64,000 nt of DNA from a bacterium (lineage in GTDB: Bacteria > UBP6 > UBA1177 > G963667425): assembly GCA_963667425.1 (NCBI GenBank), contig OY763407.1, positions 2,009,226 through 2,073,225 of the forward strand, in the 5' to 3' direction. The notes beneath the pieces are model-generated. The model was not told the DNA's origin, searched no databases, and worked only from the letters and a program-made list of their open reading frames with translations. Shown piece by piece: positions 9,141 through 60,303 of the stretch (positions are counted from its first letter, which is position 1; the number at the start of each line of letters is the position of its first letter). Made by a program: the position numbers and the translations under genes.

Positions 9141-11318
9141 TTATTCTGAATCTTCGGTGTCTTTAAATTCCATATTAAGCTGATTCATAAAGAATCCGTA
9201 CTCAAGAGCAACCTCTTCCATTGCGGCGGCAACAGATTTTCCCTGACCGTGACCCGCTTTCATCTCAACTCTCAGGAAAATCGGATTATCAGATTTGTTT
9301 TCGTACTGAAGAAGTGCAGCCATCTTTTTTGCATGCATAGGATGAACACGGCTGTCACTCTCACCGGCAGTAAGAAAAACAGCAGGATACTTCACGCCGC
9401 TTTTAACATTCTGATAAGGAGAATATTTATAGATATATTTAAACTGCTCAGGATCATCAGCAGTTCCATATTCACTTACCCAGTAGCGACCGATAAGAAA
9501 CTTATCAAACTTAAGCATATCAAGGAGAGGAACAGCAACAAGAGCAGCCTTAAAAAGCTCAGGATACTGAACAACCATTGCACCGGTAAGAAGACCGCCA
9601 TTACTTCCGCCCCATATCGCAACTCTGTCAGGGTTAGTATACTTCTCACTGATAAGATACTTTATCGCCCAGGCAAAATCATCAAAAGTATTCTGCTTAT
9701 TCTCCATCATACCGGCTCTATGCCATTTCTCGCCATACTCGCCGCCGCCTCTTATATTTGCAATAGCAAGAACTCCACCCTGCTCAATCCATGCAACATT
9801 ACTTGAAGAGAAATAAAGAGGATAAGTAACATTAAAACCGCCGTAACCCTTAATAAGAACAGGATTATTTCCGTTAAGCTCAAGACCTTTCTTATAAACA
9901 AGGAACATCGGAACCTTTGTACCATCCTTTGAAGCAAAGAAAACCTGCTTCGTCTCTATACTGCCGCAGTCAACACCGACATTCGCCTGCCAGAACTGCT
10001 TAAGACCTTTCCCTTCGCTATATTTGAAAATAGTAGGAGGATACGCATAGGAAGAAAACTTAAAATAAACAAAAGCACCATCAGGATCAGCAGAAACAGA
10101 ATCAATTGAACCGAGAACAGGAAGACCAACAGAAACAGCCTTACCGTCATCAAGATTGTAAAACTTTATTTTAGAAGCGACATCATGCATATAGACAACA
10201 AGCATTCTTCCCGCAGCAACACCGAAATTACTGATAACATCACTATCATGTTCAGGAACAAGCGTCGACCACTCCAAAGTATCAGCATTGACCTTCATAA
10301 TCTTCCAGTTCAAAGCATTATCCTGAGCAGTTTTAAGATAAACATTATTTCTGTAAACCTCGCCCTCATAAATATTATCGTAATTATCGACAACAGTCTT
10401 CATCTTAGCTTCATTTATATCATAAAGAAGAACCTTAGCCTTACCGCTTGAACCCTTATACTCGAAAATAAGAAGCCAGTTACCATCAGGATCTATAGTT
10501 GAAACTAAAATAGCCTCCTTGATAGTAGACTTAGCCACAACAGCATCACTCTCAAAGTTATCACCAAGCTTATGGAAACGGATAGACTGAAGCATATCAA
10601 TCTCCTTAGGATCGTTCCCATCCATCTTTCTGCTGTAAAAGAAACCCGACTCATCCTTCTTCCAGCCGACACTCGCATATCTGCAACCGGGAATAGGGGC
10701 ATCAACAGCAGTTTTAGTTTCAGTATCTATAACATGAAGAACAGACTGCTCGCTTCCATTCTCAGAAAGACCATAAACAACATACTTACCGGAAGGCGAA
10801 ACACTCCACCAGTCCATAGCAGTCGTCCCCTCGCTGTTTATTTTGTTAGGATTAACAAGCTCATCCTTCTGACCATTGACATCCATATAAAGAACAGCCT
10901 GATTCTCAAGACCTCTGGTAAACTCATAAAAAATCTTACCGCCACGCTCGACAGGAAGATCCATCTTATCATAATTCCAGAGCTTCTTAAGTCTCTCCAT
11001 CAGTTTTGCAGTCTGAGGATAACCCTTGATAACCTTTTCGGAATACTCATTCTCAGCATTAGTCCAGGCCTTAACCTTCGGATCATCCGAATTCTCAAGC
11101 CAGCTGTAGTAATCGGTAATCTCAACACCGTGCAAAGTATATTTAGAATCAATACGCTCAGCATTAGGATAAAAAGGCTTATACTCAAGCATCTTCTTAT
11201 CAACCTTAACCATATCCTTGCTGTACTTAGTCTCTACATTAAGCTTTTTCACCTGACTATCCGTTGAACAGGCAAACACAAACATGAGAGAAACCGCTAA
11301 AAGAATCAACTTCTTCAT
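9141..11318 (-). CDS. Prolyl oligopeptidase (S9A), lipoprotein
   Basis: Lipobox LMFVFACS. Beta-propeller N-terminal region. Catalytic domain with GGSNGGLL (Ser) and AGHG (His). The ATG at 11318 has GGAG 6 nt upstream; the track start at 11321 is TTG. Confidence 0.9.
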   Translation of the reverse strand: MKKLILLAVSLMFVFACSTDSQVKKLNVETKYSKDMVKVDKKMLEYKPFYPNAERIDSKYTLHGVEITDYYSWLENSDDPKVKAWTNAENEYSEKVIKGYPQTAKLMERLKKLWNYDKMDLPVERGGKIFYEFTRGLENQAVLYMDVNGQKDELVNPNKINSEGTTAMDWWSVSPSGKYVVYGLSENGSEQSVLHVIDTETKTAVDAPIPGCRYASVGWKKDESGFFYSRKMDGNDPKEIDMLQSIRFHKLGDNFESDAVVAKSTIKEAILVSTIDPDGNWLLIFEYKGSSGKAKVLLYDINEAKMKTVVDNYDNIYEGEVYRNNVYLKTAQDNALNWKIMKVNADTLEWSTLVPEHDSDVISNFGVAAGRMLVVYMHDVASKIKFYNLDDGKAVSVGLPVLGSIDSVSADPDGAFVYFKFSSYAYPPTIFKYSEGKGLKQFWQANVGVDCGSIETKQVFFASKDGTKVPMFLVYKKGLELNGNNPVLIKGYGGFNVTYPLYFSSSNVAWIEQGGVLAIANIRGGGEYGEKWHRAGMMENKQNTFDDFAWAIKYLISEKYTNPDRVAIWGGSNGGLLTGAMVVQYPELFKAALVAVPLLDMLKFDKFLIGRYWVSEYGTADDPEQFKYIYKYSPYQNVKSGVKYPAVFLTAGESDSRVHPMHAKKMAALLQYENKSDNPIFLRVEMKAGHGQGKSVAAAMEEVALEYGFFMNQLNMEFKDTEDSE

Positions 11319-13092: not shown

Positions 13093-16000
13093 CAGCCTCC
13101 ATAGATATTGTTAAAAATTCTTTATTTTGTTCATCAGGAACTACTTTTGATAAAGTTAAATTATTGTTTTCATCCAAAACATAAAAAAGAATTCCTTTCT
13201 CCTCTATCCCAAGTTTACTATAAATTTCTTCTGAAACCTCCGCATCACTCTTTATTTTAGACTCTTTTTCTAACTTTATTGAATATGGAACTCTTGATCT
13301 AACCTGGAATAATCCTTCTTCATCAAATTCCACTTCTATTTTTTCAGCAAAAATTGGAATACCATCGATCTTTGGTTTAAACACAAATGCAACAGAATTT
13401 ACTAAAGTTTTTACAGGAAGATCAGGTTCTTCAATAGAAAAAGAATGAATTGTGTCTCTGCTTGTTCCTGTATATTCCAAATAAAGTGTTGTTAAACTTT
13501 GAGCTATTTCCTTAGCCATTGCAAGCTTCTTTTCTAATCCATATTCCCAATCTTCTTGTTCACTAAAAGGTTCAAATTTTCTGTTTGCAGTCACAGAAAT
13601 GTTTTTGCCATCTTTTCTTATTTTAAAGTTTTCATTTAATGTTTTTGTACTATTAGTAAATAATTCTTCTAAATCCGAGTTGGAAACAGCTTCAAAAGAA
13701 TATTTCTTAAAACTGCTGGCAGATTGACTTGTACGACTTTTTGTATAGGTAGTAAGATTATCATTTTCTTTATCTCTAAAACAGTAATAATTATAGTTCT
13801 GAACATTTGTTTTTCTAGGTTTAACACCTACTGATGTGTTATACATATAATCAGTTTTCATATATGTTGAAGTGCAGCTTGACTGTGTGCAGTCACAAGT
13901 TTCAAGAGTTAAAAACCGTGCATCCCTTTCATAGATTCCTGTAAAATCAGCACTCCATGCATAAACCCATGCTTTTGAAATAGGCATATTATCGTTTGTT
14001 AAATAATTCCAGAAATTTTCATACTGATAGTTAGCTTCGGAGCGTCCCCACCAAGAAATATTTCTGTATCCGCCAATACCGTTTAAGCGAGTCAACAGAG
14101 GATAATACATATCTGCCACTCTACTCCATGGAAGCCCATCATATCCAAAAGAATAACAGGCCGTTGTAAGCAGCCAACGAGTTTTAAATTGTCCGAGTCT
14201 CTCTGTATACAAACTTTCATTAAACGCTTTTGTACTTAAGTCGTCTTCAGCAATACGAACAACATCTCTATCGTCGGGAGAATGGTTAAAATCATAATAG
14301 AAATAATTATCGGAATACTCCTGATAAGGTAAAGCTATTCTTAAATCATCATTTTGGTCCCAGACACTTAGATCGGTGTAGCGACCATGTCCAGATAAAA
14401 TAAGCATTTCATAATTATCTGTATATTTATTAAATTTCTGCTCATTTCCATAGTAAACTCTTTCATAAAATTCCTGATCATTATGCGTTGCACTTATATC
14501 ATAGGCGAAACTATCTTTATCATATTTTAAACACTCTATTCGGAAATTATTGCCCATCTGATTTACATCTCGAATTCCATTCAAACAAACTTCTTCTAGT
14601 TTATTAACACTAGTACTAGGAAAATCTGAAGCCATAAACCATCCAATAGAACGAGCTCTTACGGGATAAACTAAATTAACAGAATTATTATAGCTTCTAA
14701 AATCCAAGGAATTTGTACCATTTGTATAACCAAACCAACCTAAATTTCTATGAGAAGAATTTAATATTTTATAATCATTAGTGTCTTCGCCTAAATCTAA
14801 AGTAATATTTCCAAAAAGTTCAACCGAACTTATAGTATCATTTTTTATTATTAAATTAGAAAAATCATCTATTGCCAGAGATTGCGTTCCTACAAGCAGT
14901 AACCGTTTATAACTGGCAACAGCATTTGTCTGAGAACTAAACTGATATTCAGGCAAATCATAAAGATATGCAAAACCGAAAGGCTCAACTACAGCATCAT
15001 TAAAACCATGTATTCCATAATATTTTACCGCATAATCAAAAGATGCAGGTTGCGTTGTAATTGAATATGTATTGTTATTAATGTTTGCCGGCAGAGATGC
15101 ATATACTCCATCATTATAATAGTAACAAGAGCCATTATTGTTTGTATTATTACAAAGATACGCTTCCCAGCCTTCTGAAACTTTTATAGAAGAGACATTT
15201 ATTCTTTTTGAAAATAAATATGGTATATTAGGATTGCCTGAAGGAACCGTCCATCCATAATTATCTAAATCAAATTCTGTACCTTTTGTAACAGAACAAG
15301 AACGATTGCTATCCAGTGAACTATCACAAAATCTGATTCCTGAGAATTCACTTCTATACAGAGATTTAACATCATCTTCAGAAAGAGTTCTGTCGTAAAA
15401 TCTCACATTATCAATTTCACCCTTAAAAAAATCACTTTTTGAGTTGCCTGAATCCCAATCCTGAGCTAAGACCCAAGGTTTATCATTAGATAAAAACGTT
15501 CCCATTTTATCATTAATAGTTCCCGACCAAAGAACCTCTCCATTTTTGTAAACCACAACATTTGTAAAAGAAGTCCCTTCACTTCCCACAATTACATAAT
15601 GTGTCCATACAAGAGGCTCTGTTCCACTAGAAAAGAATTGAACATGATTAAGCAATCTTAGTGAAAGCTGATTATTCCAGTAACCAAAAAGAAAAGAATT
15701 ATCAACACCATTTGCGGTATGTTTTCCTATGTATGAATTATTATTTGATGATGTAGCTTGCTGATCAGATTTGACCCATAAACTTATTGAGTATCTGCCA
15801 GCTGAATTTCGAGGATCTGTAGTTCCTGTTCCAAACTCAACATAATCATTTACACCGTCAAAGTATGCAGCTCTATTTTCCATTCCTTCTTTAAAAACGA
15901 CTCCACCAGTTTGCGTACCATCTGCCTCGTCCCTATCATCCAAAAAATTATTATCAAAATTTAAATGCAGAATAGATGATTCTTTGTTATAAATTTCCTT

Positions 16001-16678
16001 TACCTCTTCTTCTGATAATTTTGTATTATAAAATCTAACACTATCCATTTGCCCCTTAAAGAAATCTGATGTAGCTGTAGAAGAATCCCAATCCTGACCT
16101 AAAACCCAAGATTTTCCAGAGGAATTACTATCCATAGTATCATTTATTATACCAGCCCAAACTTGTTCACCATTTTTATATAGATTTACATTCGTGATAC
16201 CATTAACTTCCTGTGCTGCAATAACATAATGAACCCAAGTATATAAAGGCTCTGAACCTAAAGATGAGAAGTATTCTATATCATTATTAATTGTTAGAGA
16301 AAGAGATCCATTCCAATAACCAAAAAGGAACTCATTGCCACCAGAAGATGTATGTTTTCCAATATAACTATTTGCATTAGATGAAGAAGCCCTTTCTGTA
16401 GAATAAACCCATAAAGAAATAGTATATGTTCCATTGTTTCCTCTTGGATCAAAAGAATCCAGACCAATTTCAAAATAATTCACACCATCAAATTTAAGAC
16501 TTTTATCAATCTGACCAAGAGAATAAAAATAATAATCATTTCCATTCCCAGCTCTTTTAGCATTGCTATTACCATAGCTGTCATCTAAATTACCATCAAA
16601 TTTAAGATGAGTTAACAAACTAGCTGATAAATGAAATGAAATAATAAAAAACAAAATAATAAAAACCATCTTTTTCAT
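13079..16678 (-). CDS. Secreted 1199-aa protein: 2x LamG/concanavalin-A-like lectin domains plus a large C-terminal region with a possible clan-CD (caspase/gingipain-like) His-Gly ... Ala-Cys dyad
   Basis: Signal peptide MKKMVFIILFFIISFHLSA. Two ~215-aa internal repeats share NSYIGKHT, FLFGYWN, W-HYVI, YKNGE, SDFFKG and VRFY (LamG_3-like). MLILSGHG has His764 (14387-14389) and WLLTTACYSFG has Cys841 (14156-14158); each follows a hydrophobic strand. Confidence 0.6.
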   Translation of the reverse strand: MKKMVFIILFFIISFHLSASLLTHLKFDGNLDDSYGNSNAKRAGNGNDYYFYSLGQIDKSLKFDGVNYFEIGLDSFDPRGNNGTYTISLWVYSTERASSSNANSYIGKHTSSGGNEFLFGYWNGSLSLTINNDIEYFSSLGSEPLYTWVHYVIAAQEVNGITNVNLYKNGEQVWAGIINDTMDSNSSGKSWVLGQDWDSSTATSDFFKGQMDSVRFYNTKLSEEEVKEIYNKESSILHLNFDNNFLDDRDEADGTQTGGVVFKEGMENRAAYFDGVNDYVEFGTGTTDPRNSAGRYSISLWVKSDQQATSSNNNSYIGKHTANGVDNSFLFGYWNNQLSLRLLNHVQFFSSGTEPLVWTHYVIVGSEGTSFTNVVVYKNGEVLWSGTINDKMGTFLSNDKPWVLAQDWDSGNSKSDFFKGEIDNVRFYDRTLSEDDVKSLYRSEFSGIRFCDSSLDSNRSCSVTKGTEFDLDNYGWTVPSGNPNIPYLFSKRINVSSIKVSEGWEAYLCNNTNNNGSCYYYNDGVYASLPANINNNTYSITTQPASFDYAVKYYGIHGFNDAVVEPFGFAYLYDLPEYQFSSQTNAVASYKRLLLVGTQSLAIDDFSNLIIKNDTISSVELFGNITLDLGEDTNDYKILNSSHRNLGWFGYTNGTNSLDFRSYNNSVNLVYPVRARSIGWFMASDFPSTSVNKLEEVCLNGIRDVNQMGNNFRIECLKYDKDSFAYDISATHNDQEFYERVYYGNEQKFNKYTDNYEMLILSGHGRYTDLSVWDQNDDLRIALPYQEYSDNYFYYDFNHSPDDRDVVRIAEDDLSTKAFNESLYTERLGQFKTRWLLTTACYSFGYDGLPWSRVADMYYPLLTRLNGIGGYRNISWWGRSEANYQYENFWNYLTNDNMPISKAWVYAWSADFTGIYERDARFLTLETCDCTQSSCTSTYMKTDYMYNTSVGVKPRKTNVQNYNYYCFRDKENDNLTTYTKSRTSQSASSFKKYSFEAVSNSDLEELFTNSTKTLNENFKIRKDGKNISVTANRKFEPFSEQEDWEYGLEKKLAMAKEIAQSLTTLYLEYTGTSRDTIHSFSIEEPDLPVKTLVNSVAFVFKPKIDGIPIFAEKIEVEFDEEGLFQVRSRVPYSIKLEKESKIKSDAEVSEEIYSKLGIEEKGILFYVLDENNNLTLSKVVPDEQNKEFLTISMEADDEK

Positions 16679-16692
16679 AGCTATTACCTACC

Positions 16693-17061
16693 AACAATTT
16701 ATAAAAACATACGCATTGTAACCCCATGGAAACTGTTGTCAAGCAGATAAAAGCATTAAAGCCGATGTTTTTTTATATAACTTAAAAAGAAAACAATTCC
16801 TTAATTCCTTTTTTTATACATCAGAGAAAAGAGAATCCTTTATACATCAAGGCTAAAAAAAAATAAGAGATACTGGAATTTCACACTTTATGAAACAGCA
16901 GAAAATTATCTGAACAATGAAAACTCTTTATGATGAAATCATTTAAGCAGTACGCAAAAACAAAGTTACCCTTAAAAAATTTGACATTTAACATCCGTAA
17001 GATAAGGTTTGATGTTTTATTAACCACATGTATAAAAAGGGTTTTAACATGAAACACAAAC
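16693..17061. repeat. Repeat R, copy 2 (native context: divergent promoter region of the 1199-aa gene and the GDPD-like gene)
   Basis: See 11925-12292. Confidence 0.9.
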
Positions 17062-17888
17062 TAATTCTTCTCATTATCCCGATTCTTCTTACAATACTTG
17101 GATGCAGTGAAGAAAAATGGTTCGTTCCGACAGAAAAGAACATTTTAATATCCCATGCCTTAGGCGGAATCAATTCCACTGTATATACAAATTCAAAAGA
17201 TGCTTTCATTCTCAACTATGATAAAGGCTACCGCTGGTTTGAAGTTGACATAACACTTTTAAAAGACGGCAACCTTGTCTGCTTTCATGAAGGACACGAA
17301 AAACATCTCGGCATCGGCAACAGAAAAATAACTGACCTGACCATCAAAGAATTTGAATCCTTAAAATATGACGGCAAATACCAGCAGATTTCATTTAAAA
17401 CATTCCTTGAAATTGCAAATCAAAAGAAAGGAATCTACATAGTTACCGATACAAAGTTATGGAACACGGAAATCATGGACAAGTTCATAAAGGAAGTAAA
17501 CGCCGTTGATTCAGACCTCTTTAAAAAGATAATTCCCCAGATATACAAAGAAGAAGATATGAACCTAATCGAAAAAGTGGATAAAAATCACACCAGATTC
17601 GCATCGCTGATTTTTACGCTATACGCAATGGACAGCAAAAAAATCCCTAATGAAAACATTCTTGCCGCAGTAAAAAAATACGGAATACCAATAGTTACAA
17701 TGCCGAGATGGGATTATATAAGACTTACGAAAGAATTTATAAAACAGCTCCATGACGAGCATATATATACCTTTACACACACGATAAACAACTCAAAAGA
17801 TGCCGGTAAAATGTATGAAATGGGAATTGACGGGCTATACACCGATTTTTATATGGAACAAAAAGATTCAGGAAACAGAAAAAAGTAG
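17049..17888 (+). CDS. Glycerophosphodiester phosphodiesterase (GDPD)-like lipoprotein
   Basis: MKHKLILLIIPILLTILGCSEE lipobox. ISHALGG ... WFEVDITLLKDGNLVCFHE matches the GDPD H..G / E.D / H(D/E) pattern. The ATG at 17049 has AAGGG upstream; the track ORF starts at 17028. Confidence 0.65.
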   Translation: MKHKLILLIIPILLTILGCSEEKWFVPTEKNILISHALGGINSTVYTNSKDAFILNYDKGYRWFEVDITLLKDGNLVCFHEGHEKHLGIGNRKITDLTIKEFESLKYDGKYQQISFKTFLEIANQKKGIYIVTDTKLWNTEIMDKFIKEVNAVDSDLFKKIIPQIYKEEDMNLIEKVDKNHTRFASLIFTLYAMDSKKIPNENILAAVKKYGIPIVTMPRWDYIRLTKEFIKQLHDEHIYTFTHTINNSKDAGKMYEMGIDGLYTDFYMEQKDSGNRKK

Positions 17889-18368
17889 CTAATCCCTTGT
17901 AAGCTCACAGTAATAGACCTGATCACCATCTTCACGTTTAAGCTTTTTAATCTTCGCAAGCCTTTCAGGATCACCCTTTACAGTAAAACGGATAACCTTC
18001 GGGCAAACGCATGTAGCCCACTCATTATGGTAATCTATCTCTATTTCAAGATTAAGAACCGATTCATCCTCTTCATCAAATGAAGTTGCAACATAGATAT
18101 CCTGAGTATTAGAGCAGTTAAAATCTTTTGCATACTCGATAACAAGACCGTTATCATCCAGAGAAATAATCTCGGCAAATGGTTCAGTTATTTTTATTGT
18201 ATCACCAGTATGAGCCTTTATATCATCTTCCGTTATCTCCTTCATACTGAAGCTGCCTGTAGAATCGCTTTTCATACAGGCGGAAAGCCGGGCCTTCTGC
18301 ATATCGCTTCCGTCACTGCATGAAAGGATAAAAAGGAAAGAAAAAAGAGTTAAAATAAGTTTTTTCAT
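17889..18368 (-). CDS. Small Cys-containing lipoprotein, function unknown (paralog of 11425-11910)
   Basis: The MKKLILTLFSFLFILSCSDGS start at 18368 has GAGGA upstream. The track ORF extends to 18449. Its stop directly abuts the GDPD stop (TAG|CTA at 17886-17891). Confidence 0.75.
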   Translation of the reverse strand: MKKLILTLFSFLFILSCSDGSDMQKARLSACMKSDSTGSFSMKEITEDDIKAHTGDTIKITEPFAEIISLDDNGLVIEYAKDFNCSNTQDIYVATSFDEEDESVLNLEIEIDYHNEWATCVCPKVIRFTVKGDPERLAKIKKLKREDGDQVYYCELTRD

Positions 18369-18378
18369 AAGACGTTCC

Positions 18379-19053
18379 TCACATACCAAGCTTACTGAAC
18401 CACTCATTGTTGCCCTTAAATGCAACTTTTGCAAGAAGTTTAAGATCACTTACAAAATCTTCAAGCTCGGCAATTCTGGCATCTCTTGCATCAGTTGCGG
18501 CAACAGCTTCAGCCTTTTCCTTTTCAGCTGTTATTCTCTTTTCTGAAACGTTATCAACAAGGGTTCTGCGACCTTTGAGCTTTTCATCTGTAAGACCAAA
18601 CTCGCTTAAAGTCTCGGTAACTTCACTGTTTCCAAGTGCATTGTCATAAAATGTTCTAAGCTCTGATATCCACGACGAATAGGCTCTGTTTCTTGAGCCT
18701 TTAAGATTTAAAAGAGTCTCTTTTTCACTGTCATTTTCAAATGCGATTCTTGCAATTTTAACATCTTTCATGTAAAGGGTGTCAAGCTCGCCTTTTGCAC
18801 TGTTAAATTCCTCAACTGCCTTATACTGCTCGGAGTATTCCTTTTTCTGGGCATTTACACTTTCAATTGTACGTTCCAGAATAAGCAGTGCATTGACAAG
18901 TTCGGTATCTCCTATTCCGTACTTTCCAATTGCGCTCTTCATTTCGGGGTTGTTTCTGATACCTTTGATGATGAGTTCTGCATTTGTGATTCTATCATCT
19001 ACAGAAATCGTTTTTACAGTTCTCTTTTTCGTTTCTTTTACTTCTTCAGCCAT
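18379..19053 (-). CDS. Hypothetical cytoplasmic, predicted all-helical protein (224 aa)
   Basis: Strong RBS (AGGAG 7 nt upstream of the ATG at 19053). No signal peptide. K/E-rich helical composition. I recognise no family. 10-nt gap to the next gene. Confidence 0.7.
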   Translation of the reverse strand: MAEEVKETKKRTVKTISVDDRITNAELIIKGIRNNPEMKSAIGKYGIGDTELVNALLILERTIESVNAQKKEYSEQYKAVEEFNSAKGELDTLYMKDVKIARIAFENDSEKETLLNLKGSRNRAYSSWISELRTFYDNALGNSEVTETLSEFGLTDEKLKGRRTLVDNVSEKRITAEKEKAEAVAATDARDARIAELEDFVSDLKLLAKVAFKGNNEWFSKLGM

Positions 19054-19103
19054 AAGTTACTCCTGCTTTATGATTGGTAAAACCGTTTATATGACAAAGT
19101 AAC

Positions 19104-19312
19104 GGCACTATGTCATGCCTGCAATGAAAAAAATGGTAAGTGGCAGTTGCAGTGTCATTCCCGCACTCAAAAGAATCATTAAGCGGCGCAGCAATGTCAT
19201 GCCTGCAATAAAATAAATGGTTCGTAACAGACGCAATGCCTTTTCTGCACGGGAAAAAACGCCCCGTGGCAGACGCAATGCCTTTTCTGCACGAAAAAAA
19301 TCGCTCTGCGGC
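19104..19312. repeat. Five degenerate, contiguous tandem repeats of about 41-43 bp, GC-richer than the flanks
   Basis: Units are 19104-19144, 19145-19187, 19188-19228, 19229-19270 and 19271-19312. Units 4 and 5 share an identical 22-mer, AGACGCAATGCCTTTTCTGCAC. Units 1 and 3 share ATGTCATGCCTGCAAT. Most units have a GGCA-loop-TGCC mini-hairpin and an A/T run. Confidence 0.85.
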
Positions 19313-19441
19313 GCTCCTTTGCTTTTCCTCTCTTTGCACCCATGACGTTGTAAAGGTAAAACGCCTTAAAATTTTGCTTACCTGCGACAATGTATCTCTG
19401 ATTTGTTCCATGCTACACACTTTTTGTAATCGTTTTGACTT

Positions 19442-19469
19442 ATTTTATTAAATGAGGCGGTGATGTAAA
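19442..19469 (-). promoter_or_regulatory. Possible sigma70-type promoter reading into the repeat array and the 224-aa gene
   Basis: On the minus strand: TTTACA (19469-19464), 16 nt, TAAAAT (19447-19442). It sits just downstream of the CARF-nuclease stop. Confidence 0.3.
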
Positions 19470-19485
19470 GAAAAAAGTTTATCTC

Positions 19486-21060
19486 TCAGAGATATCTTTC
19501 CGCTATTGAAAGGAGTTTTGTCTCTATCTGATCTAGCGGCGTGACTGTTTTGTCGGTCTGGGTGAGAAAATTTATCCATGTGCTTGTGTGTCTTACCCCT
19601 TTTTTGCGGAGCTGGCTCATGAAATGCTGGTCTTTTGTTTCGAGTTTTTCAATGTCTGTTGATGACCATGGAAAAACGATGTCCATTTCGACTGTTCTGC
19701 CGAGATATTTCCTTATTACAAGTAGTCTTGAGTTTATATCTTTGTTGTATGTCTGGCTGCTTTTGGCTTCAAAGATATGGATGTGTCCGTTTCCGAATAC
19801 GACCATTGTGTCGAGTTCTATCATTGTGCCGAGTTCTTTGTCTATTTTTACGTTCTGATAGACTGATGTTATGCTTTCTTTGAGTATGGGGTTCTTTTCG
19901 ATTGCTCTGCATACGGCGTAGCTTACAAGTTTTTCAAATACGTTTGCTATTGTTGTTCTGCTGGTAAGGAAAACCTTTTCGCCTGATTCATCTATTAATG
20001 GTTTGGAACTGTAGCTGTTATATAACTGTTCAGGAAAGCTTACCTGATTTATTTTTCTCATTGTCTTGCCGTACTGCATCATTGTGAATGTTGTGTCGGA
20101 TGCGAGTGCTGCGATTTTGCTTTTCACTTCGTTTGATATTTCCGCAAAGTTTCCGGTTATGATTTTATCAATGTTGTGATAAAGTTTTGTTTCTGATGCT
20201 TTTACAACTTCACTGTAGTCTTCAAAAAACTTGGGATCTGAAATGTACTCTTCCCTGAAGTAGTTTACAAAGGTGTTTTTAAGTTCCTTCACTGTGTTTT
20301 TTATGGCATCTAATGAGTCGTTTTCGTTTCTCGGTATTATTCCGGTGAGTGTGTCTTCTACTTCGGAGAGTTCTTTTTCTATGAATTTGTGAATTATCGA
20401 TTCGTCTCCGTATTTTGATGCGGCTTCTTTTATGTTTTCAAATGAGAGGAAGTAGGATCTGAGGTTTACGTCGCCGCATATTTCATCAAAGAGTCTGCTG
20501 TAGCTTTCCAGTCCTGTGAACCAGCAGTATTTGTCGTTATAGATTTCCTTGTATTCCCGAAGTGTTGCACCGTACATTTCGACTCTTTCCTTTATGTTCC
20601 AGTCGAATTTTACGGGGAAGGTTTCCTGTGCAAAGCTTTTTTCGTGTACTTTTATAAGGTATATTTTTCTCACGTCAGGGTCGAAGTATATCATTGAAAA
20701 GGAAATATTTACTTTTTCAGCGAGTCTTTTAAGGTAGTTCCCGGCTGTTATTCTGTGGATTCCCTTTCCTGAGCTTGCATCGAGCACCATGTTTGTCACT
20801 TTTTTCTCAGCTATGAGCTCTCTTGTGTGTATTTTTATGATGTCTACTATTGCTGTCATCGTGGATGTCTTGTCGATGAAGATGTTTTTGTATTCTATGG
20901 CTTTTCCGCTTAGTGAAACAAGTAGCGGAATCTGCTCGTACCATTTTTCTTCTGCCGCTTTGGGTGTTGTGAAAAAGAGTATGTAGTCGGGGTTTGCCTG
21001 TTTTATTATAGATGCCTGAACAACTGTCTGTCTTGAGACAAAAGCAATTAGTAGGTTCAT
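19486..21060 (-). CDS. Card1/Can2-like (DUF1887-type) protein: N-terminal CARF-like domain, long inserted helical region, C-terminal PD-(D/E)xK nuclease
   Basis: The ATG at 21060 has AGGAG 5 nt upstream; the track ORF starts at 21096. NLLIAFVSRQTVVQASIIKQ resembles the Card1 beta1 strand (LVSEQTIPN type). VLDASSGKG (aa 92-100) sits where Card1 has ITGGTK. The nuclease core is FEKLV (E376), ELD (D417) and IFEAKS (E431, K433), at 19762-19818. Confidence 0.6.
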   Translation of the reverse strand: MNLLIAFVSRQTVVQASIIKQANPDYILFFTTPKAAEEKWYEQIPLLVSLSGKAIEYKNIFIDKTSTMTAIVDIIKIHTRELIAEKKVTNMVLDASSGKGIHRITAGNYLKRLAEKVNISFSMIYFDPDVRKIYLIKVHEKSFAQETFPVKFDWNIKERVEMYGATLREYKEIYNDKYCWFTGLESYSRLFDEICGDVNLRSYFLSFENIKEAASKYGDESIIHKFIEKELSEVEDTLTGIIPRNENDSLDAIKNTVKELKNTFVNYFREEYISDPKFFEDYSEVVKASETKLYHNIDKIITGNFAEISNEVKSKIAALASDTTFTMMQYGKTMRKINQVSFPEQLYNSYSSKPLIDESGEKVFLTSRTTIANVFEKLVSYAVCRAIEKNPILKESITSVYQNVKIDKELGTMIELDTMVVFGNGHIHIFEAKSSQTYNKDINSRLLVIRKYLGRTVEMDIVFPWSSTDIEKLETKDQHFMSQLRKKGVRHTSTWINFLTQTDKTVTPLDQIETKLLSIAERYL

Positions 21061-21071
21061 TTTTTCTCCTT

Positions 21072-22814
21072 TTATGGAAGTATGATAAGAGAGCATCCGC
21101 TCGATTTTCTTGGTTTTTCTGCTGGAACGCCGCTGTCTTCGTCTGGAGTTTCTGATGAGTCATCGGTATCTTCGTCAGGCACTTCGATGTTTTCACATTC
21201 TGTTCCGCCCCAACCACCTATCGTGTCAATTTCAATTGATGTTTTTGATATATCGAAATCTATTTTACCTTTTACGCTTCCATTGTCCCAGTAGTTTTCG
21301 GTTGTAGATGGTACTCTGTATTTTGGTGCGTATGCATTTGCAAGGTGAACTCCCATTTTATGCCCTTTGTTGAATATTATTGATAGGTATCCGACGTTGA
21401 ATTCCATTTCTGTTAAAACGTCTGACTCTATTAGCTTTTCATTTTCGAGTCCGTCACGGAATCTTACTTTTCTTCCCCCTTCGAGCATGAGATATTCCGT
21501 GCCGTCAGGATAGATGTCGGTTATTACTGCAACTAAGTCAAAGTCTTTAAGCTCTGTTGTAAAAGCTGTTTTAACATTTATTGCACCTGTAAGTTCGGTC
21601 GGCTCATCGAATGGTTCTGTCTCAAATGATATTACATCTTTTCTTAATCTGTAGACTGAAACGTCGCATGGTCCTGGGTTTATTGTAAGGTTGTTGCCGC
21701 ATATCGTAGGGAAAGGGTTTGCGTAATCAAAGTTAAGAACGAAATTTCCCTTTCCGCATCTCCCTTTTTTAAGTTTAAGGTTTTCGTCTGCGGTAAGTAT
21801 AACTTTTACTGCATTTTCCGGTGGAAATGTTTCGGATGTTTTCCATTCGTTTCCCGGAGCGGATGTGTCTGAAACGTCTCCGATTGTATAGTATGTAACA
21901 GCTGCCAGTGCTGCTTTAGGCATAGTTGGGAAAAGGTAGTGAAAAAGAAGCATATATGCGGGATCATCTTCACCTTCAAAATATCTTGCCGCATTTTCGG
22001 GGAATGTGAGTGAGCCGGATTTGGAGGTTGAAATGGTTCCGTGAGACCATGGTCCTATTACAAGATGCTGATCAGGCGCACTACTTTCCTGATAGAGTTT
22101 AAAGGTGTCGATCTGCTCTCTTGTAAACATGTCGAACCAGCCTGAAATATGTGTTGCAGGAATGGTAAGGTTTGCTTTTCTTGTAAAGAGATCTGTATCA
22201 TTCCAATAGCTGTTTGTTTTGCTGTACATGTTGTCTTTCATGAGATCCTCTATGAAAAAAGAGGCTCCCTGATCCTGTAGCCATAATGTCATTGCATGTT
22301 CACGAAGCATTCCTCCGGGAAAAAATACGCCATCGTAAAGGTCTCCTGCGGCAATTGAGATAATCTGATAGACTAAAGAAGGTTTTTCATCGAGTCCTGC
22401 CATGAAGTACTGGGTAAGTCCTTCGGCTGATCCACCTATTGTAGCTATTTTCCCGTTGCACCATGTCTGAGCTGTTATCCATTTTAAAGTATCGTAGCCG
22501 TCTTTTTTTTCTCCCCAGCCATCTGAGTGCCAGACAGAATGGATTCCTTCCGATCCGAGCCTTCCGCGAACTGACTGTGCAACAAATATGACTCCGTTTG
22601 TGGAAAGTGTTTTTCCTATTTCTTCCTTATCTTCCCTGTTGTATGGTGAGCGGTTTAGAATAACAGGATATGTGTTTCCTTCCATGTTGTCAGGAAAATA
22701 TATATCAGCCGCGAGATTTGTTCCATCGTCCATAGGAATATCAAAAGTCTTTTTCTCAAATGCAGATAATACTGATACTAAAAGAAGAGTTACAATAATT
22801 AAAAGCTTTTTCAT
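21072..22814 (-). CDS. CocE/NonD-family hydrolase (S15 X-Pro dipeptidyl-peptidase-like), secreted, with acidic C-terminal tail
   Basis: Signal peptide MKKLLIIVTLLLVSVLSA. FDIPMDDGTNLAADIYFP...PVILNRSPY. GGSAEG nucleophile elbow. The ATG at 22814 has GGAG upstream. Confidence 0.8.
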   Translation of the reverse strand: MKKLLIIVTLLLVSVLSAFEKKTFDIPMDDGTNLAADIYFPDNMEGNTYPVILNRSPYNREDKEEIGKTLSTNGVIFVAQSVRGRLGSEGIHSVWHSDGWGEKKDGYDTLKWITAQTWCNGKIATIGGSAEGLTQYFMAGLDEKPSLVYQIISIAAGDLYDGVFFPGGMLREHAMTLWLQDQGASFFIEDLMKDNMYSKTNSYWNDTDLFTRKANLTIPATHISGWFDMFTREQIDTFKLYQESSAPDQHLVIGPWSHGTISTSKSGSLTFPENAARYFEGEDDPAYMLLFHYLFPTMPKAALAAVTYYTIGDVSDTSAPGNEWKTSETFPPENAVKVILTADENLKLKKGRCGKGNFVLNFDYANPFPTICGNNLTINPGPCDVSVYRLRKDVISFETEPFDEPTELTGAINVKTAFTTELKDFDLVAVITDIYPDGTEYLMLEGGRKVRFRDGLENEKLIESDVLTEMEFNVGYLSIIFNKGHKMGVHLANAYAPKYRVPSTTENYWDNGSVKGKIDFDISKTSIEIDTIGGWGGTECENIEVPDEDTDDSSETPDEDSGVPAEKPRKSSGCSLIILP

Positions 22815-22915
22815 TATAGTCTCCATATGAACGAAATATGAAAGATTCTAGCAGAAGAGGTATTTGTGTCAAGGAAAGCAATATTTCATAACAATAAAGA
22901 GTTGTTACATAAAAA

Positions 22916-58097: not shown

Positions 58098-60224
58098 TTA
58101 TTCACTTCTTAGCTGTTGTTGTACTCCGTTATTTCCCTTATTACCATCACTCTCTCCACCTTTACCAGCAGCTCCCAAAACAAAGGATGCTTTAGAAACA
58201 TCTATTTGTGAAGATTCTATCATAATTACACCAATAGAAGGACCGCCGCCACCGCCGCCGCCAGCTCCACCAGCTCCACCAGCTCCACCGTTGCCTCCAA
58301 AACCGCCGCAACCTGCATCGTCCTGATCAGAACTATATGCACCTGGAATACCGCCATTGCCACCTGTACCACCTGTGCCACCAACGCCACCTGTGCCGCC
58401 ATTACCACCTGTACCGGTTTTTATTTCTGTGTAATCAAAATATATTTTCATAGACGAATTTACCCATACAGCAAATGAACCGCCACCACCAGCTCCACCA
58501 GTACCGCCAGCTCCACCACATCCAGCTCCTCCACCACCACCGCCGGCAGAACCGTATGTTGAACAGTCACTAAAAGCATTGTTATCTTTGTGTCCTTTTC
58601 CACCGCCACCGCCGCCACCGGAAACACCTCTCGTTCCTTCCAAACCATCCCCTCCTTTAGAGGGAATATATGAAGAAGAATCGGCATAACCAAAAGCACT
58701 GCCAGCCTGACCATCATCACCTGCATCTCCATTATGACCATTTCTTCCATTTGCAGCATATGTGGGAATTGGGTTTCCATCCGTTGAACAGGAAAGATCA
58801 CTAGTCAAAGTTCCGCCTGTACCAGTATTTATTCCATTATCCTGACCCTGAAGATTGTTGTTTGAACCTTCAACACCTTCTGAACCGTCGTAGCCAGGGT
58901 ATCCGCCATCGCCACCTTTTGTTCCACATGCCGAATAACCTCCCGAACCGTAAGCAGGCTGACTACAGTTTCCACCACAACCAATAAGGTCATCATCACT
59001 TTCACAGCCTGGAGCTCCAGTTCCACCATTACTACCAGAAGCTCCTGTAGCACCTGTAATACCGTCAAGACCTTTTTTGCCATTTCCTGAAACTATATAG
59101 GAATGTCTTATGGAAATGTTCATACTACTGTTTATAAAAATACCATAGGAAGATTCCCCATTTTCCTCAGCATCATCAGCATTAATAGAAATATATGTCA
59201 TTTCAATATTTTCACATTGAGAAATTATAACAGGTTTGTTAGAACCTTTAATTGTAACAAAATTTGAAGTAGATCTTACCCAATCAGGATAACCGCTATA
59301 GCCACCATAAAGGGATACATTGCTTTTTAGCGTTACTGGTCCGTCATATTCACCTTTTGCAATAAGTATTGCAGGTTTATATTCAGCTGTTGCAAGCACT
59401 AAAGCTTTTGTTATACTTCTGACAGGAAGATCTTTTGTTCCTTCATTAAGGTCACTGCCATAAACTGAATCTACAAAAATAGATTTTTCAATGTTTCCAT
59501 CTATTCCGTCACCATTACTGTCTATAAAGTTATCGTCAGGTTTGTCTTCTGTTATATTAGGTTTTGTTTCACATGTTGATGTGTCAAATCTAACGCAGTT
59601 TGCTGTACAGTAGGCTGTTCCTCCTGAAAATGTGGAAGAATCTATCAGCGTGCATAGTCTGGAATTTCCATCACAAACCTCATTAGCCTGAATTGTACCG
59701 TCACCACAGGTAGTAACAACAACATCACTGTCTGGAAGAGCATTGTCATCATCAGAAAAATCTTCATCAGATTCTATATCTAAATCAGGATCAATATCAG
59801 TAAAAATATCAAGATCATCTTTTTCAATATCTGAATCCATATCGTTTTCAGAATCTGAAACAGGTATATCTTCATCGTTCATATAATCTTCATCATCAAT
59901 CAAAGAATCATTATCAATATCAGGAATTTCAGCATAGTCAGCATCAAAAACGGCTATATCTTCATCATTTCTTTCTCCAGGTCTGCAATAGCCATCTGTT
60001 GCACAATAAAAACCATCAAGGCATGCATCGTTTGTCATGCATGTATACAATGTTGAACATTCTCCTTCTTTCACACCTGTGTCATTAACCTTTCCAGCAG
60101 AAAAATCACAGTATGTTCCTGTTTTGCATTCGGTATCATTAAGGCATGTGTTATCTGTTTTTTTATCATCACATGCAGAAACAAAAAATAAAAGCAATGT
60201 GATAAAAACTAAATAAAACTTCAT
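58098..60224 (-). CDS. Lipoprotein: Cys-rich N-terminus, acidic linker, Myxococcus-type Cys-rich repeat, right-handed beta-helix region, long Gly-rich C-terminus
   Basis: The MKFYLVFITLLLFFVSACDDK start at 60224 has GAGG upstream. TTCGDGTIQANEVCDGN matches the CGDG..E.CD repeat. IFVDSVYGSDLNEGTKDLPVRSITKAL is a beta-helix N-cap. C-terminal GGxGG runs end in GGAGGAGGAGGGGGGGP. Confidence 0.7.
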   Translation of the reverse strand: MKFYLVFITLLLFFVSACDDKKTDNTCLNDTECKTGTYCDFSAGKVNDTGVKEGECSTLYTCMTNDACLDGFYCATDGYCRPGERNDEDIAVFDADYAEIPDIDNDSLIDDEDYMNDEDIPVSDSENDMDSDIEKDDLDIFTDIDPDLDIESDEDFSDDDNALPDSDVVVTTCGDGTIQANEVCDGNSRLCTLIDSSTFSGGTAYCTANCVRFDTSTCETKPNITEDKPDDNFIDSNGDGIDGNIEKSIFVDSVYGSDLNEGTKDLPVRSITKALVLATAEYKPAILIAKGEYDGPVTLKSNVSLYGGYSGYPDWVRSTSNFVTIKGSNKPVIISQCENIEMTYISINADDAEENGESSYGIFINSSMNISIRHSYIVSGNGKKGLDGITGATGASGSNGGTGAPGCESDDDLIGCGGNCSQPAYGSGGYSACGTKGGDGGYPGYDGSEGVEGSNNNLQGQDNGINTGTGGTLTSDLSCSTDGNPIPTYAANGRNGHNGDAGDDGQAGSAFGYADSSSYIPSKGGDGLEGTRGVSGGGGGGGKGHKDNNAFSDCSTYGSAGGGGGGAGCGGAGGTGGAGGGGSFAVWVNSSMKIYFDYTEIKTGTGGNGGTGGVGGTGGTGGNGGIPGAYSSDQDDAGCGGFGGNGGAGGAGGAGGGGGGGPSIGVIMIESSQIDVSKASFVLGAAGKGGESDGNKGNNGVQQQLRSE

Positions 60225-60303
60225 ATAAGACCTCATAAATTTAAATTATGCAGAGAAATTATACGGATATAAAGAAGAATCTCAATAACTTTATACAAAA
60301 TTA

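Follow-up and report, generated by a model that had tools for sequence, protein, structure and literature searches.

No output of type III CRISPR signalling is better understood than the CARF nucleases, sensor-nuclease proteins that small cyclic nucleotides activate. We analysed a stretch of 64,000 nucleotides from a bacterium of the UBP6 lineage (GenBank assembly GCA_963667425.1, contig OY763407.1, positions 2,009,226 to 2,073,225 of the forward strand), referred to below as the window, and within it a gene for a protein of 524 aa. The protein is a Can2/Card1-type effector, in which the predicted fold and domain order are those of a CARF sensor domain, a helical insertion and a PD-(D/E)xK nuclease domain. 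We place it in a long-form sister family of Can2 that is rare and uncharacterised and has a D-x-T-T-G-x-G loop in place of NxTGGTK. We consider it reasonably probable that the protein is still a Can2-like nuclease gated by a ligand of the cyclic oligoadenylate (cOA) type, on a branch of the family, here called the orphan clade, that lies off the CRISPR locus.

Architecture and family assignment

Among the PADLOC models the protein matches CARF_PDDEXK (E=5.7e-9), CARF4--CARF_PDDEXK (1.6e-7) and Csx1 (2.6e-5). An AlphaFold2 model, built from an alignment with 12 homologues (pLDDT 79.4, pTM 0.56), has a Rossmann-like alpha/beta part at aa 1-175, helices spanning aa 184-352 and a second alpha/beta part at aa 368-524. 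When it was compared with the PDB using Foldseek, the top 15 matches were to Can2 (from three organisms), VC1899, Card1 and Cdn1, with E from 1e-12 to 5e-10 and both terminal domains covered. CARF-only matches to Csm6, Csx1-Crn2 and Cam1 rank next, ahead of Can1, and some Rossmann folds of E1 enzymes also occur; viral structures (BFVD) gave no meaningful match. An initial annotation of this gene, made from the sequence alone, had proposed a Card1/Can2-like protein with CARF and PD-(D/E)xK domains, and PADLOC, Foldseek and the profile alignments described below bear this out; the peptide strings that it quoted (NLLIAFVSRQTVVQASIIKQ, FEKLV, ELDTMVVFGNGHIHIFEAKS and VLDASSGKG) are all present in the translation. 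The profile match by which it proposed to be checked was found for CARF/PD-(D/E)xK in PADLOC and was not found for DUF1887 in Pfam, where a search at E<=10 returned four sub-threshold, unrelated matches only and no DUF1887/Card1 model; ten distant family members are without a Pfam match as well.

The family is rare, since only 36 clusters, most of them 510-610 aa in length, were recovered at E<=1e-3 when 1.84 billion representative proteins were scanned exhaustively with HMMER. An alignment that covers sensor, insertion and nuclease could be made for 25 full-length members, with the clade of the window gene about 20% identical to the rest. Invariant across these 25 are D94, G98, R201, E376, E415, D417, E431, K433, K440, G454 and P464, and nearly so are P24, T32, W40, D129, R159, S206 and W495. 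A D-x-T-[TS]-G-x-[GSN] motif occurs in every member with an intact N-terminal domain and ExD...E-x-K in nearly all, while PADLOC matches members to Csx1 (18 of the 25), CARF4-PDDEXK (16) and CARF_PDDEXK (11), the best at E=3.8e-13. Searched against a database of 5.8 billion sequences, the profile of the wide family alignment retrieved the orphan clade only. At closer range, the end-to-end alignment with 12 full-length homologues (524-533 aa) has 91 invariant columns, which include Q11, T12, D94, S96, G98-I104, F375-E376-K377, E415, D417, E431-A432-K433 and S435; within the orphan clade the share of invariant columns is 30% in the nuclease domain, 20% in the sensor and 5% in the insertion.

With Can2 and Card1 (SthCan2, TresuCard1, TbrCan2 and Cdn1) the protein shares the order CARF, helical insertion and PD-(D/E)xK, the E...ExD...E-x-K signature, and a motif-II loop that aligns residue for residue, with the Thr after beta2 (T32) and the Tyr after beta5 (Y125) kept. 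These proteins are also its best structural matches (E about 1e-12), and its distant relatives reside in type III-D loci, like the clade of TbrCan2. It differs from them in having DASSGKG for NxTGGTK, with Gly at the Lys position, and in lacking the DUF1887/Card1 match; in its length, 524 aa compared to 342-437 aa in the characterised dimeric PDB matches, as the initial annotation had stated; in an insertion that alone resembles no PDB entry; and in the position of the protein and its clade away from CRISPR-Cas loci. Because the protein has no NxTGGTK motif and is not recognised by the curated family model, and the orphan clade is not adjacent to CRISPR loci, we do not file the protein as Can2 but in a sister family with a long insertion, the members of which would work in the manner of Can2. 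Can1 (monomeric, PDB 6sce) also joins CARF to PD-(D/E)xK at a comparable total length (about 600 aa), but there the length comes from duplication, with two CARF domains plus a nuclease-like domain, whereas the window protein combines one CARF domain with a helical insertion, and Can1 is also a much weaker structural match (E=6e-5).

The PADLOC CARF_PDDEXK models presumably derive from the CARF census of Makarova 2020, and relatives may already be catalogued there, uncharacterised. The long-form family is undescribed in the literature that we searched, that census lying outside the search.

Nuclease domain and helical insertion

The nuclease motif of Can2 is E-ExD-(E/S)CK (PMC10783487). In the window protein it takes the form E376 ... 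E415-L-D417 ... E431-A-K433, with Ala in place of Cys, and an HMM alignment sets the family consensus ElDtLvlf.nG.l.vfEaKt against ELDVVFLYHN-KLHVIECKT of SthCan2. The five residues E376, E415, D417, E431 and K433 are invariant in the 25 family members, down to about 20% identity. D417, E431 and K433, which the initial annotation had singled out for mutation, are numbered correctly with M1 at 21060 and are invariant in the 12 close homologues too. The catalytic strands (aa 394-435) also give a NERD (PF08378) match, which is sub-threshold at 14.3 bits compared to a cut-off of 22.1.

Can2 has been described as a CARF domain, an alpha-helical insertion (INS) and an REase domain, the CARF and REase of TbrCan2 comprising residues 1-145 and 290-437 respectively; one Can2 clade is without INS, and in TbrCan2 the INS residues R213 and K217 bind substrate (PMC10783487). 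Having an insertion is not new, therefore, because the Can2 INS is already described; the novelty is its length and its lack of recognisable similarity. From the motif-II loop to the catalytic Asp there are 317 residues in the window protein, compared to approximately 240 in TbrCan2 and 179 in SthCan2. Modelled alone, the insertion, a possible homologue of the Can2 INS, forms a bundle of seven helices (pLDDT 73.6), and this model has no significant structural match in the PDB, TbrCan2 and Can2 included (best E=0.25). Hence, of what the initial annotation said of this segment, its helical nature at roughly aa 190-370 and its unusual length stand, while the insertion as such is no peculiarity of this protein. 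Its 'K/E/D-rich' character is weakly true, K, E and D together making up 26.5% compared to 21-22% in the flanking domains, with an excess that is mainly acidic. At R201, close to where the insertion begins, all 25 family members agree, and by analogy with the INS residues of TbrCan2 a part in substrate binding is plausible.

Sensor domain and motif-II loop

In the AlphaFold2 model the sensor consists of a Rossmann-like beta-alpha core (aa 1-127, beta1-beta5) and extra beta-hairpins (aa 132-175). The Foldseek matches to Can2, Card1, VC1899 and Cdn1 cover this N-terminal domain, and there are CARF-only matches to Cam1, Csm6 and Csx1, with a TM-score normalised to the window protein of 0.57-0.60 for Cam1. 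Family profiles were also searched against PDB sequences, where the matches are individually weak (E 0.003-0.8) and mutually consistent, that to the Csx1-Crn2 CARF having E=0.0027. Because these alignments place D94-A-S-S-G-K-G over N-V-T-G-G-T-K of SthCan2 and Cdn1, and over D-L-T-H-G of the Csx1-Crn2 CARF, we take DASSGKG to be the CARF motif-II loop.

The loop is strongly conserved. Across the orphan clade, at an overall identity of 35-40%, 9 of the 11 positions of DASSGKGIHRI are invariant; A95 is nearly so, and two members have Cys for S97. Throughout the family D94 and G98 do not vary, whereas K99 is specific to the orphan clade. The D94-x-S96 part of the motif II pattern [DN]x[ST]xxx[RK] is present, with the basic residue at +5 (the clade-specific K99) and Gly at +6. 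NxTGGTK, said to occur in all Can2 clades (PMC10783487), is found in 0/34 extended-family sequences.

Contacts to cOA have been reported for SthCan2 (Ser19, Thr42, Lys99 and Tyr118; PMC7969007), for TbrCan2 (the NxTGGTK residues with Thr12 and Tyr128; PMC10783487) and for Cdn1 (T9, Q11, T37, K104 and Y124; PMC12825302). In HMM alignments T32 of the window protein falls on SthCan2 T42 and Cdn1 T37, and Y125 on SthCan2 Y118 and TbrCan2 Y128. S9 stands at the end of beta1, the CARF motif I position, and is Ser in 22/25 family sequences; S9 and Q11 would resemble T9 and Q11 of Cdn1 by position only. The residues at candidate contact positions are hence S9, Q11, T32 and Y125, with K99 one position off, and because these resemble published contacts the pocket, judged from its sequence, looks polar or basic and capable of binding cOA.

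CRISPR-linked relatives and the origin of the orphan clade

Four of the distant members sampled lie in or beside CRISPR loci, namely P0017, P0018, P0019 and possibly P0021. P0017 adjoins Cas6, a Cas10 of 591 aa (best models Cas10/Cas10d) and two large fused RAMP/Cas7 proteins, with a CARF-Lon-like protein of 961 aa on its other side (L036:11606-14491). P0019 is found within a locus of Cas10d, fused Cas7/Csm3, Cas6, Cas2, Cas1 and reverse transcriptase (RT), and is directly followed by a CARF_m10-HEPN (Csm6-like) effector of 495 aa (L037:11746-13233). Beside P0018 an array of about 47 copies of GTTTCAACAATTCTCGAGAATTCACTTACTGAAAG (L030:2183-about 6000) separates the gene from those of Cas2, RT-Cas1 (a fusion of 977 aa) and a fused Csm3/Cas7-IIId. 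P0021 is near WYL, NYN and ThiF genes and a Cas1 fragment. The type III-D loci of P0017 and P0019 hold several CARF effectors side by side.

The two Cas10 proteins examined, beside P0017 and P0019, have GGDD and no N-terminal HD motif, from which both systems are predicted to be signalling-dependent and to need cOA-activated effectors. This bears on the loop: the initial annotation had rightly seen that it is altered, and had read the alteration as a sign of a different ligand or a non-cOA trigger. The latter does not follow, since relatives embedded in CRISPR loci, beside GGDD-bearing, HD-less Cas10, carry the same type of loop, which is common to the family, type III-D members included.

In a distance tree built from Poisson distances with 300 bootstraps, the orphan clade is monophyletic (300/300) and groups with P0016, P0017 and P0018 (298/300), with P0019 and P0021 across that split. 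Because CRISPR-linked members sit on both sides of it, CRISPR linkage is most parsimoniously ancestral and the orphan state derived.

A further distant member, P0015, has a fusion of CARF7/Cas_APE2256 and GGDEF two genes downstream (296 aa, GGEEF intact; L028:2913-3803, L029:2840-3798), and behind this fusion come an ABC_ATPase, a sigma-54 activator and then a protein of 1073 aa with weak RNA polymerase beta/beta' matches. This CARF7-GGDEF cluster may be a nucleotide-signalling module that does not depend on Cas10.

Orphan-clade loci and the link to nfo

Orthologues at 35-47% identity were found at 21 loci in species-representative genomes, all metagenome-assembled: rumen genomes labelled 'Spirochaetales' or 'bacterium', UBP6 genomes, and sediment genomes labelled 'Sumerlaeota'. 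Among all orphan-clade loci, gene-by-gene Pfam annotation covers six (L001-L006, from three relatives), and neighbour clusters shared between loci were examined as well. Two patterns of synteny are present. In the first the gene is flanked by MCP and ThyX, as MCP(<) gene(>) ThyX(<); in the second, at 16 loci, it follows neighbour cluster 1, as cluster-1(>) gene(>). By its match to E. coli Nfo (E=2.7e-126), cluster 1 is clearly endonuclease IV. At these 16 loci nfo is the next gene upstream, shares the strand and is separated from the orthologue by -4 to +9 nt (L005, nfo at 9146-9991; equivalents in L006-L009, L011-L014, L016, L017, L019-L022 and L025), a spacing by which the orthologue is predicted to be translationally coupled to nfo in 16 genomes. 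The pair stays together although the genes on either side of it differ between loci, which suggests a two-gene operon tying a base-excision-repair enzyme to a CARF nuclease. Pairwise identities of the orthologue and of Nfo are correlated (Pearson 0.94) and have the same median, 87%. The orphan clade is inherited vertically.

A k-mer scan found no CRISPR arrays in the flanks of any relative, up to 10 kb on each side. It flagged one 20-mer repeated four times at 60-bp spacing (L017:15395-15575), which lies inside a predicted open reading frame (ORF; 15138-16049) and so is probably repetitive coding sequence rather than an array. In the second sub-clade the ThyX (Thy1) that converges on the orthologue is unusually long at 484-493 aa (L001:11601-13082, L004:11597-13051). 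On the 2.83-Mb contig of P0008 (L004), AIPR (abortive-infection) and AAA_14/DUF4143 genes are found approximately 8 kb upstream of the orthologue (L004:1-2690), and a Lactamase_B protein with a weak match to the Anti-Pycsar protein Apyc1 approximately 5 kb downstream (L004:16893-17690).

The gene and its surroundings in the window

Translation and the ORF list confirm the gene of 524 aa that the initial annotation reported, on the minus strand, which it had omitted along with the housekeeping context of the orphan gene and the existence of type III-linked relatives. The longest mechanical ORF begins at an ATG at 21096 and would run into the upstream gene, the stop codon of which is at 21072-21074. 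Direct reading of the sequence shows a strong ribosome-binding site before the ATG at 21060; this site and the upstream stop make 21060 the sensible start (Table 1). The stop codon of the upstream Peptidase_S15 gene and the ATG are 11 nt apart, and from this gap the two genes are probably co-transcribed; the same peptidase-nuclease pair occurs in an 82%-identical relative (L038).

Table 1. Features of the sensor-nuclease gene and its upstream region; positions are those of the window.
Feature	Position	Strand	Remarks
CARF-INS-PD-(D/E)xK protein, coding sequence	19486..21060	minus	524 aa plus stop (19486-19488); full-length homologues, PADLOC, Foldseek
Ribosome-binding site AGGAG	21066..21070	minus	5 nt ahead of ATG 21060
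CARF-like sensor domain, aa 1-175	20536..21060	minus	AlphaFold2 model, Foldseek CARF-only matches, weak but mutually consistent profile alignments
CARF motif-II loop D94-A-S-S-G-K-G-I-H-R-I104	20749..20781	minus	Counterpart of Can2 NxTGGTK; alignments
All-helical insertion (INS), aa 176-367 (192 aa)	19960..20535	minus	AlphaFold2, full model and INS-only model
PD-(D/E)xK nuclease domain, aa 368-524	19489..19959	minus	Foldseek to Can2, Card1 and VC1899 nuclease domains; HMM alignment
Catalytic core E415-L-D417 ... E431-A-K433	19762..19818	minus	Family-wide invariance, Can2 motif match
Helix glutamate E376	19933-19935	minus	Same residue in all 25 family members
Peptidase_S15 (X-Pro dipeptidyl peptidase) gene, upstream neighbour	21072..22826	minus	Pfam E=7e-43
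Best sigma-70-like promoter match before the peptidase-nuclease pair, TTGACA-16-TAGAAT with TG	22845..22872	minus	Consensus scan, 11/12; pattern match only

The neighbouring genes are housekeeping genes. PADLOC, applied to the 56 ORFs of at least 100 aa in the window, found no Cas10, Csm, Cmr or CD-NTase, and the gene under study is the sole defence-type match of note; a match to SspA/DndA is most likely an IscS-type cysteine desulfurase. The GC content at third codon positions (GC3) of the gene is 0.44, the highest among credible genes of the window (z=+1.9). A block of six genes at 17028-22826 has mildly raised GC3 (0.32-0.44, compared to about 0.20-0.27 around it) and encodes a GDPD phosphodiesterase, an unknown protein of 186 aa, a PQLLE-family protein, an unknown protein of 124 aa, the CARF nuclease and the Peptidase_S15 protein.

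Elsewhere in the window, five short ORFs (101-138 aa) at 314-2754 have a GC3 of 0.45-0.49, compared to a window mean of 0.28, and are in this respect as unusual as the CARF nuclease gene. We considered that they might be spurious calls over an RNA gene and rejected this, as no Rfam family and no tRNA (ARAGORN) was found at 0.3-2.8 kb; the segment may be foreign or non-coding DNA. Several tandem repeats of 9 bp and 18 bp (CCAGCTCCA, CCACCTGTA) are present at 58261-58536, inside an ORF of 712 aa on the minus strand (58098-60236), and would encode a short-period repeat protein.

Proposed mechanism and competing explanations

As a cOA-gated nuclease, the protein would belong to a branch that left the CRISPR locus and is now inherited vertically among housekeeping genes, its deeper relatives being ancillary effectors of type III-D systems. 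By analogy with the solved structures of Can2, Card1 and Cdn1 it would form a homodimer, with a cOA-type ligand, most plausibly cA4 or cA6, seated in the pocket between the two CARF domains; S9, Q11, T32, the D94-G100 loop with K99, and Y125 are the candidate contacts. Ligand binding would reorient the nuclease domains, with E376, E415, D417, E431 and K433 forming a Mg2+/Mn2+ site, and the assembled site would cut DNA and/or RNA non-specifically, while the insertion, which carries the invariant R201, probably helps to hold the substrate. The signal would come from elsewhere in the genome, either from a type III system or from some other synthase. Fold, domain order, the conserved catalytic and loop residues, the CRISPR-linked relatives and the orphan setting are results of the analysis, whereas we infer dimerisation, ligand, substrate and signal source.

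Several observations count against this proposal. No cas gene, CRISPR array or CD-NTase was found in the 64-kb window, and none was detected around the gene in 19 distinct relatives within the orphan clade, six loci of which (L001-L006) were annotated gene by gene with Pfam, although the PADLOC scan of 140 flank ORFs, which reports the best 25 of 208 families, cannot exclude single cas matches per flank. On its own the protein has no significant match in Pfam, NCBIfam or PDB sequences (phmmer), and each of the alignments to solved CARF domains is individually below significance. In three independent HMM alignments (SthCan2, Cdn1 and TbrCan2) G100 stands where NxTGGTK has its canonical phosphate-binding Lys. 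Next to the pocket the orphan clade has fixed residues of its own, Q11, T12, K99, H102 and R131, four of them as changes specific to the clade (Q in place of D at 11, K in place of Q/R/L at 99, H in place of F/L/Y at 102 and R in place of G/Q at 131). Vertical, nfo-coupled inheritance is atypical of a defence gene. Finally, cA4 does not activate VC1899, the only orphan relative of Can2 studied so far (PMC7969007). The four pocket changes, the core-gene-like inheritance and the coupling to nfo make a change of ligand or of role conceivable.

The strongest competitor is that a CRISPR effector has been recruited to housekeeping, in DNA repair or the sensing of nucleotide stress, with an endogenous nucleotide as trigger and, in many genomes, a transcript shared with nfo. 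We regard this as possible but distinctly less probable than cOA gating. It would account for an nfo that stands directly ahead on the same strand in 16 species-level genomes, in a pair that outlasts changes in its flanks and the members of which diverge in step; for the window gene and its 82%-identical relative following a housekeeping peptidase gene instead; for the clade-fixed substitutions Q11, K99, H102 and R131; and for the absence of detected cas genes near orphan-clade loci. Set against this, the nfo link is limited to one sub-clade, others having MCP/ThyX or peptidase neighbours, and may be no more than inherited gene order; the S9, Q11, T32 and Y125 that are kept resemble cOA contacts of Cdn1 and Can2; type III effectors can work in trans from distant loci; and a GC3 at the top of the window is untypical of an old core gene. 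In a bolder form, the orphan clade would be deaf to Cas10, would sense an endogenous or stress nucleotide through Q11, K99, H102 and R131, and would act with endonuclease IV as a ligand-gated enzyme of chromosomal DNA processing; this we think rather unlikely, slightly more so than recruitment in general.

Loss of cOA gating through decay is less probable again. The protein would then resemble VC1899, a DUF1887 protein of Vibrio cholerae (PDB 1xmx), as a weak, constitutive or otherwise-regulated nuclease, or would have a structural role. VC1899 offers the precedent: it is a weak RNase that cA4 does not regulate (PMC7969007). It is likewise an orphan CARF-PD-(D/E)xK protein off type III loci, with intact catalytic residues and a strong structural match to the window protein (E=9e-12), and the loss of the canonical NxTGGTK Lys and the lack of a signal synthase nearby point the same way. 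However, VC1899 has 380 aa without the long insertion, and its polar cA4 contacts have given way to acidic or hydrophobic residues (Asp9, Asp34 and Val115), whereas the window protein keeps S9, T32 and Y125 in a pocket that looks polar or basic, in common with its CRISPR-embedded relatives. A decaying sensor would also sit poorly with a motif-II loop whose conservation ranks with the highest in the protein, and with a CARF domain that exceeds the insertion fourfold in invariant columns. The notion that the protein has no CARF domain and is a PD-(D/E)xK nuclease of NERD or restriction-like type, with an unrelated Rossmann domain at its N-terminus, which draws on the sub-threshold NERD match as the sole Pfam signal and on the E1-enzyme folds among the Foldseek matches, is highly improbable in the face of two-domain matches to Can2, Card1 and VC1899 at E 1e-12, CARF-family matches in PADLOC across the family, and relatives inside type III loci among other CARF effectors.

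Significance

The long-form family shows that a Can2-like effector is workable with a D-x-T-T-G-x-G loop and a larger insertion, beside a cyclase-only Cas10d. In the orphan clade the sensor loop and the active site are under strong constraint, yet the gene is inherited in the manner of a core gene. Either such effectors persist for long periods far from a CRISPR locus, or a CARF sensor has been reused outside immunity; were recruitment to prove true, a CARF effector would have been put to housekeeping use.

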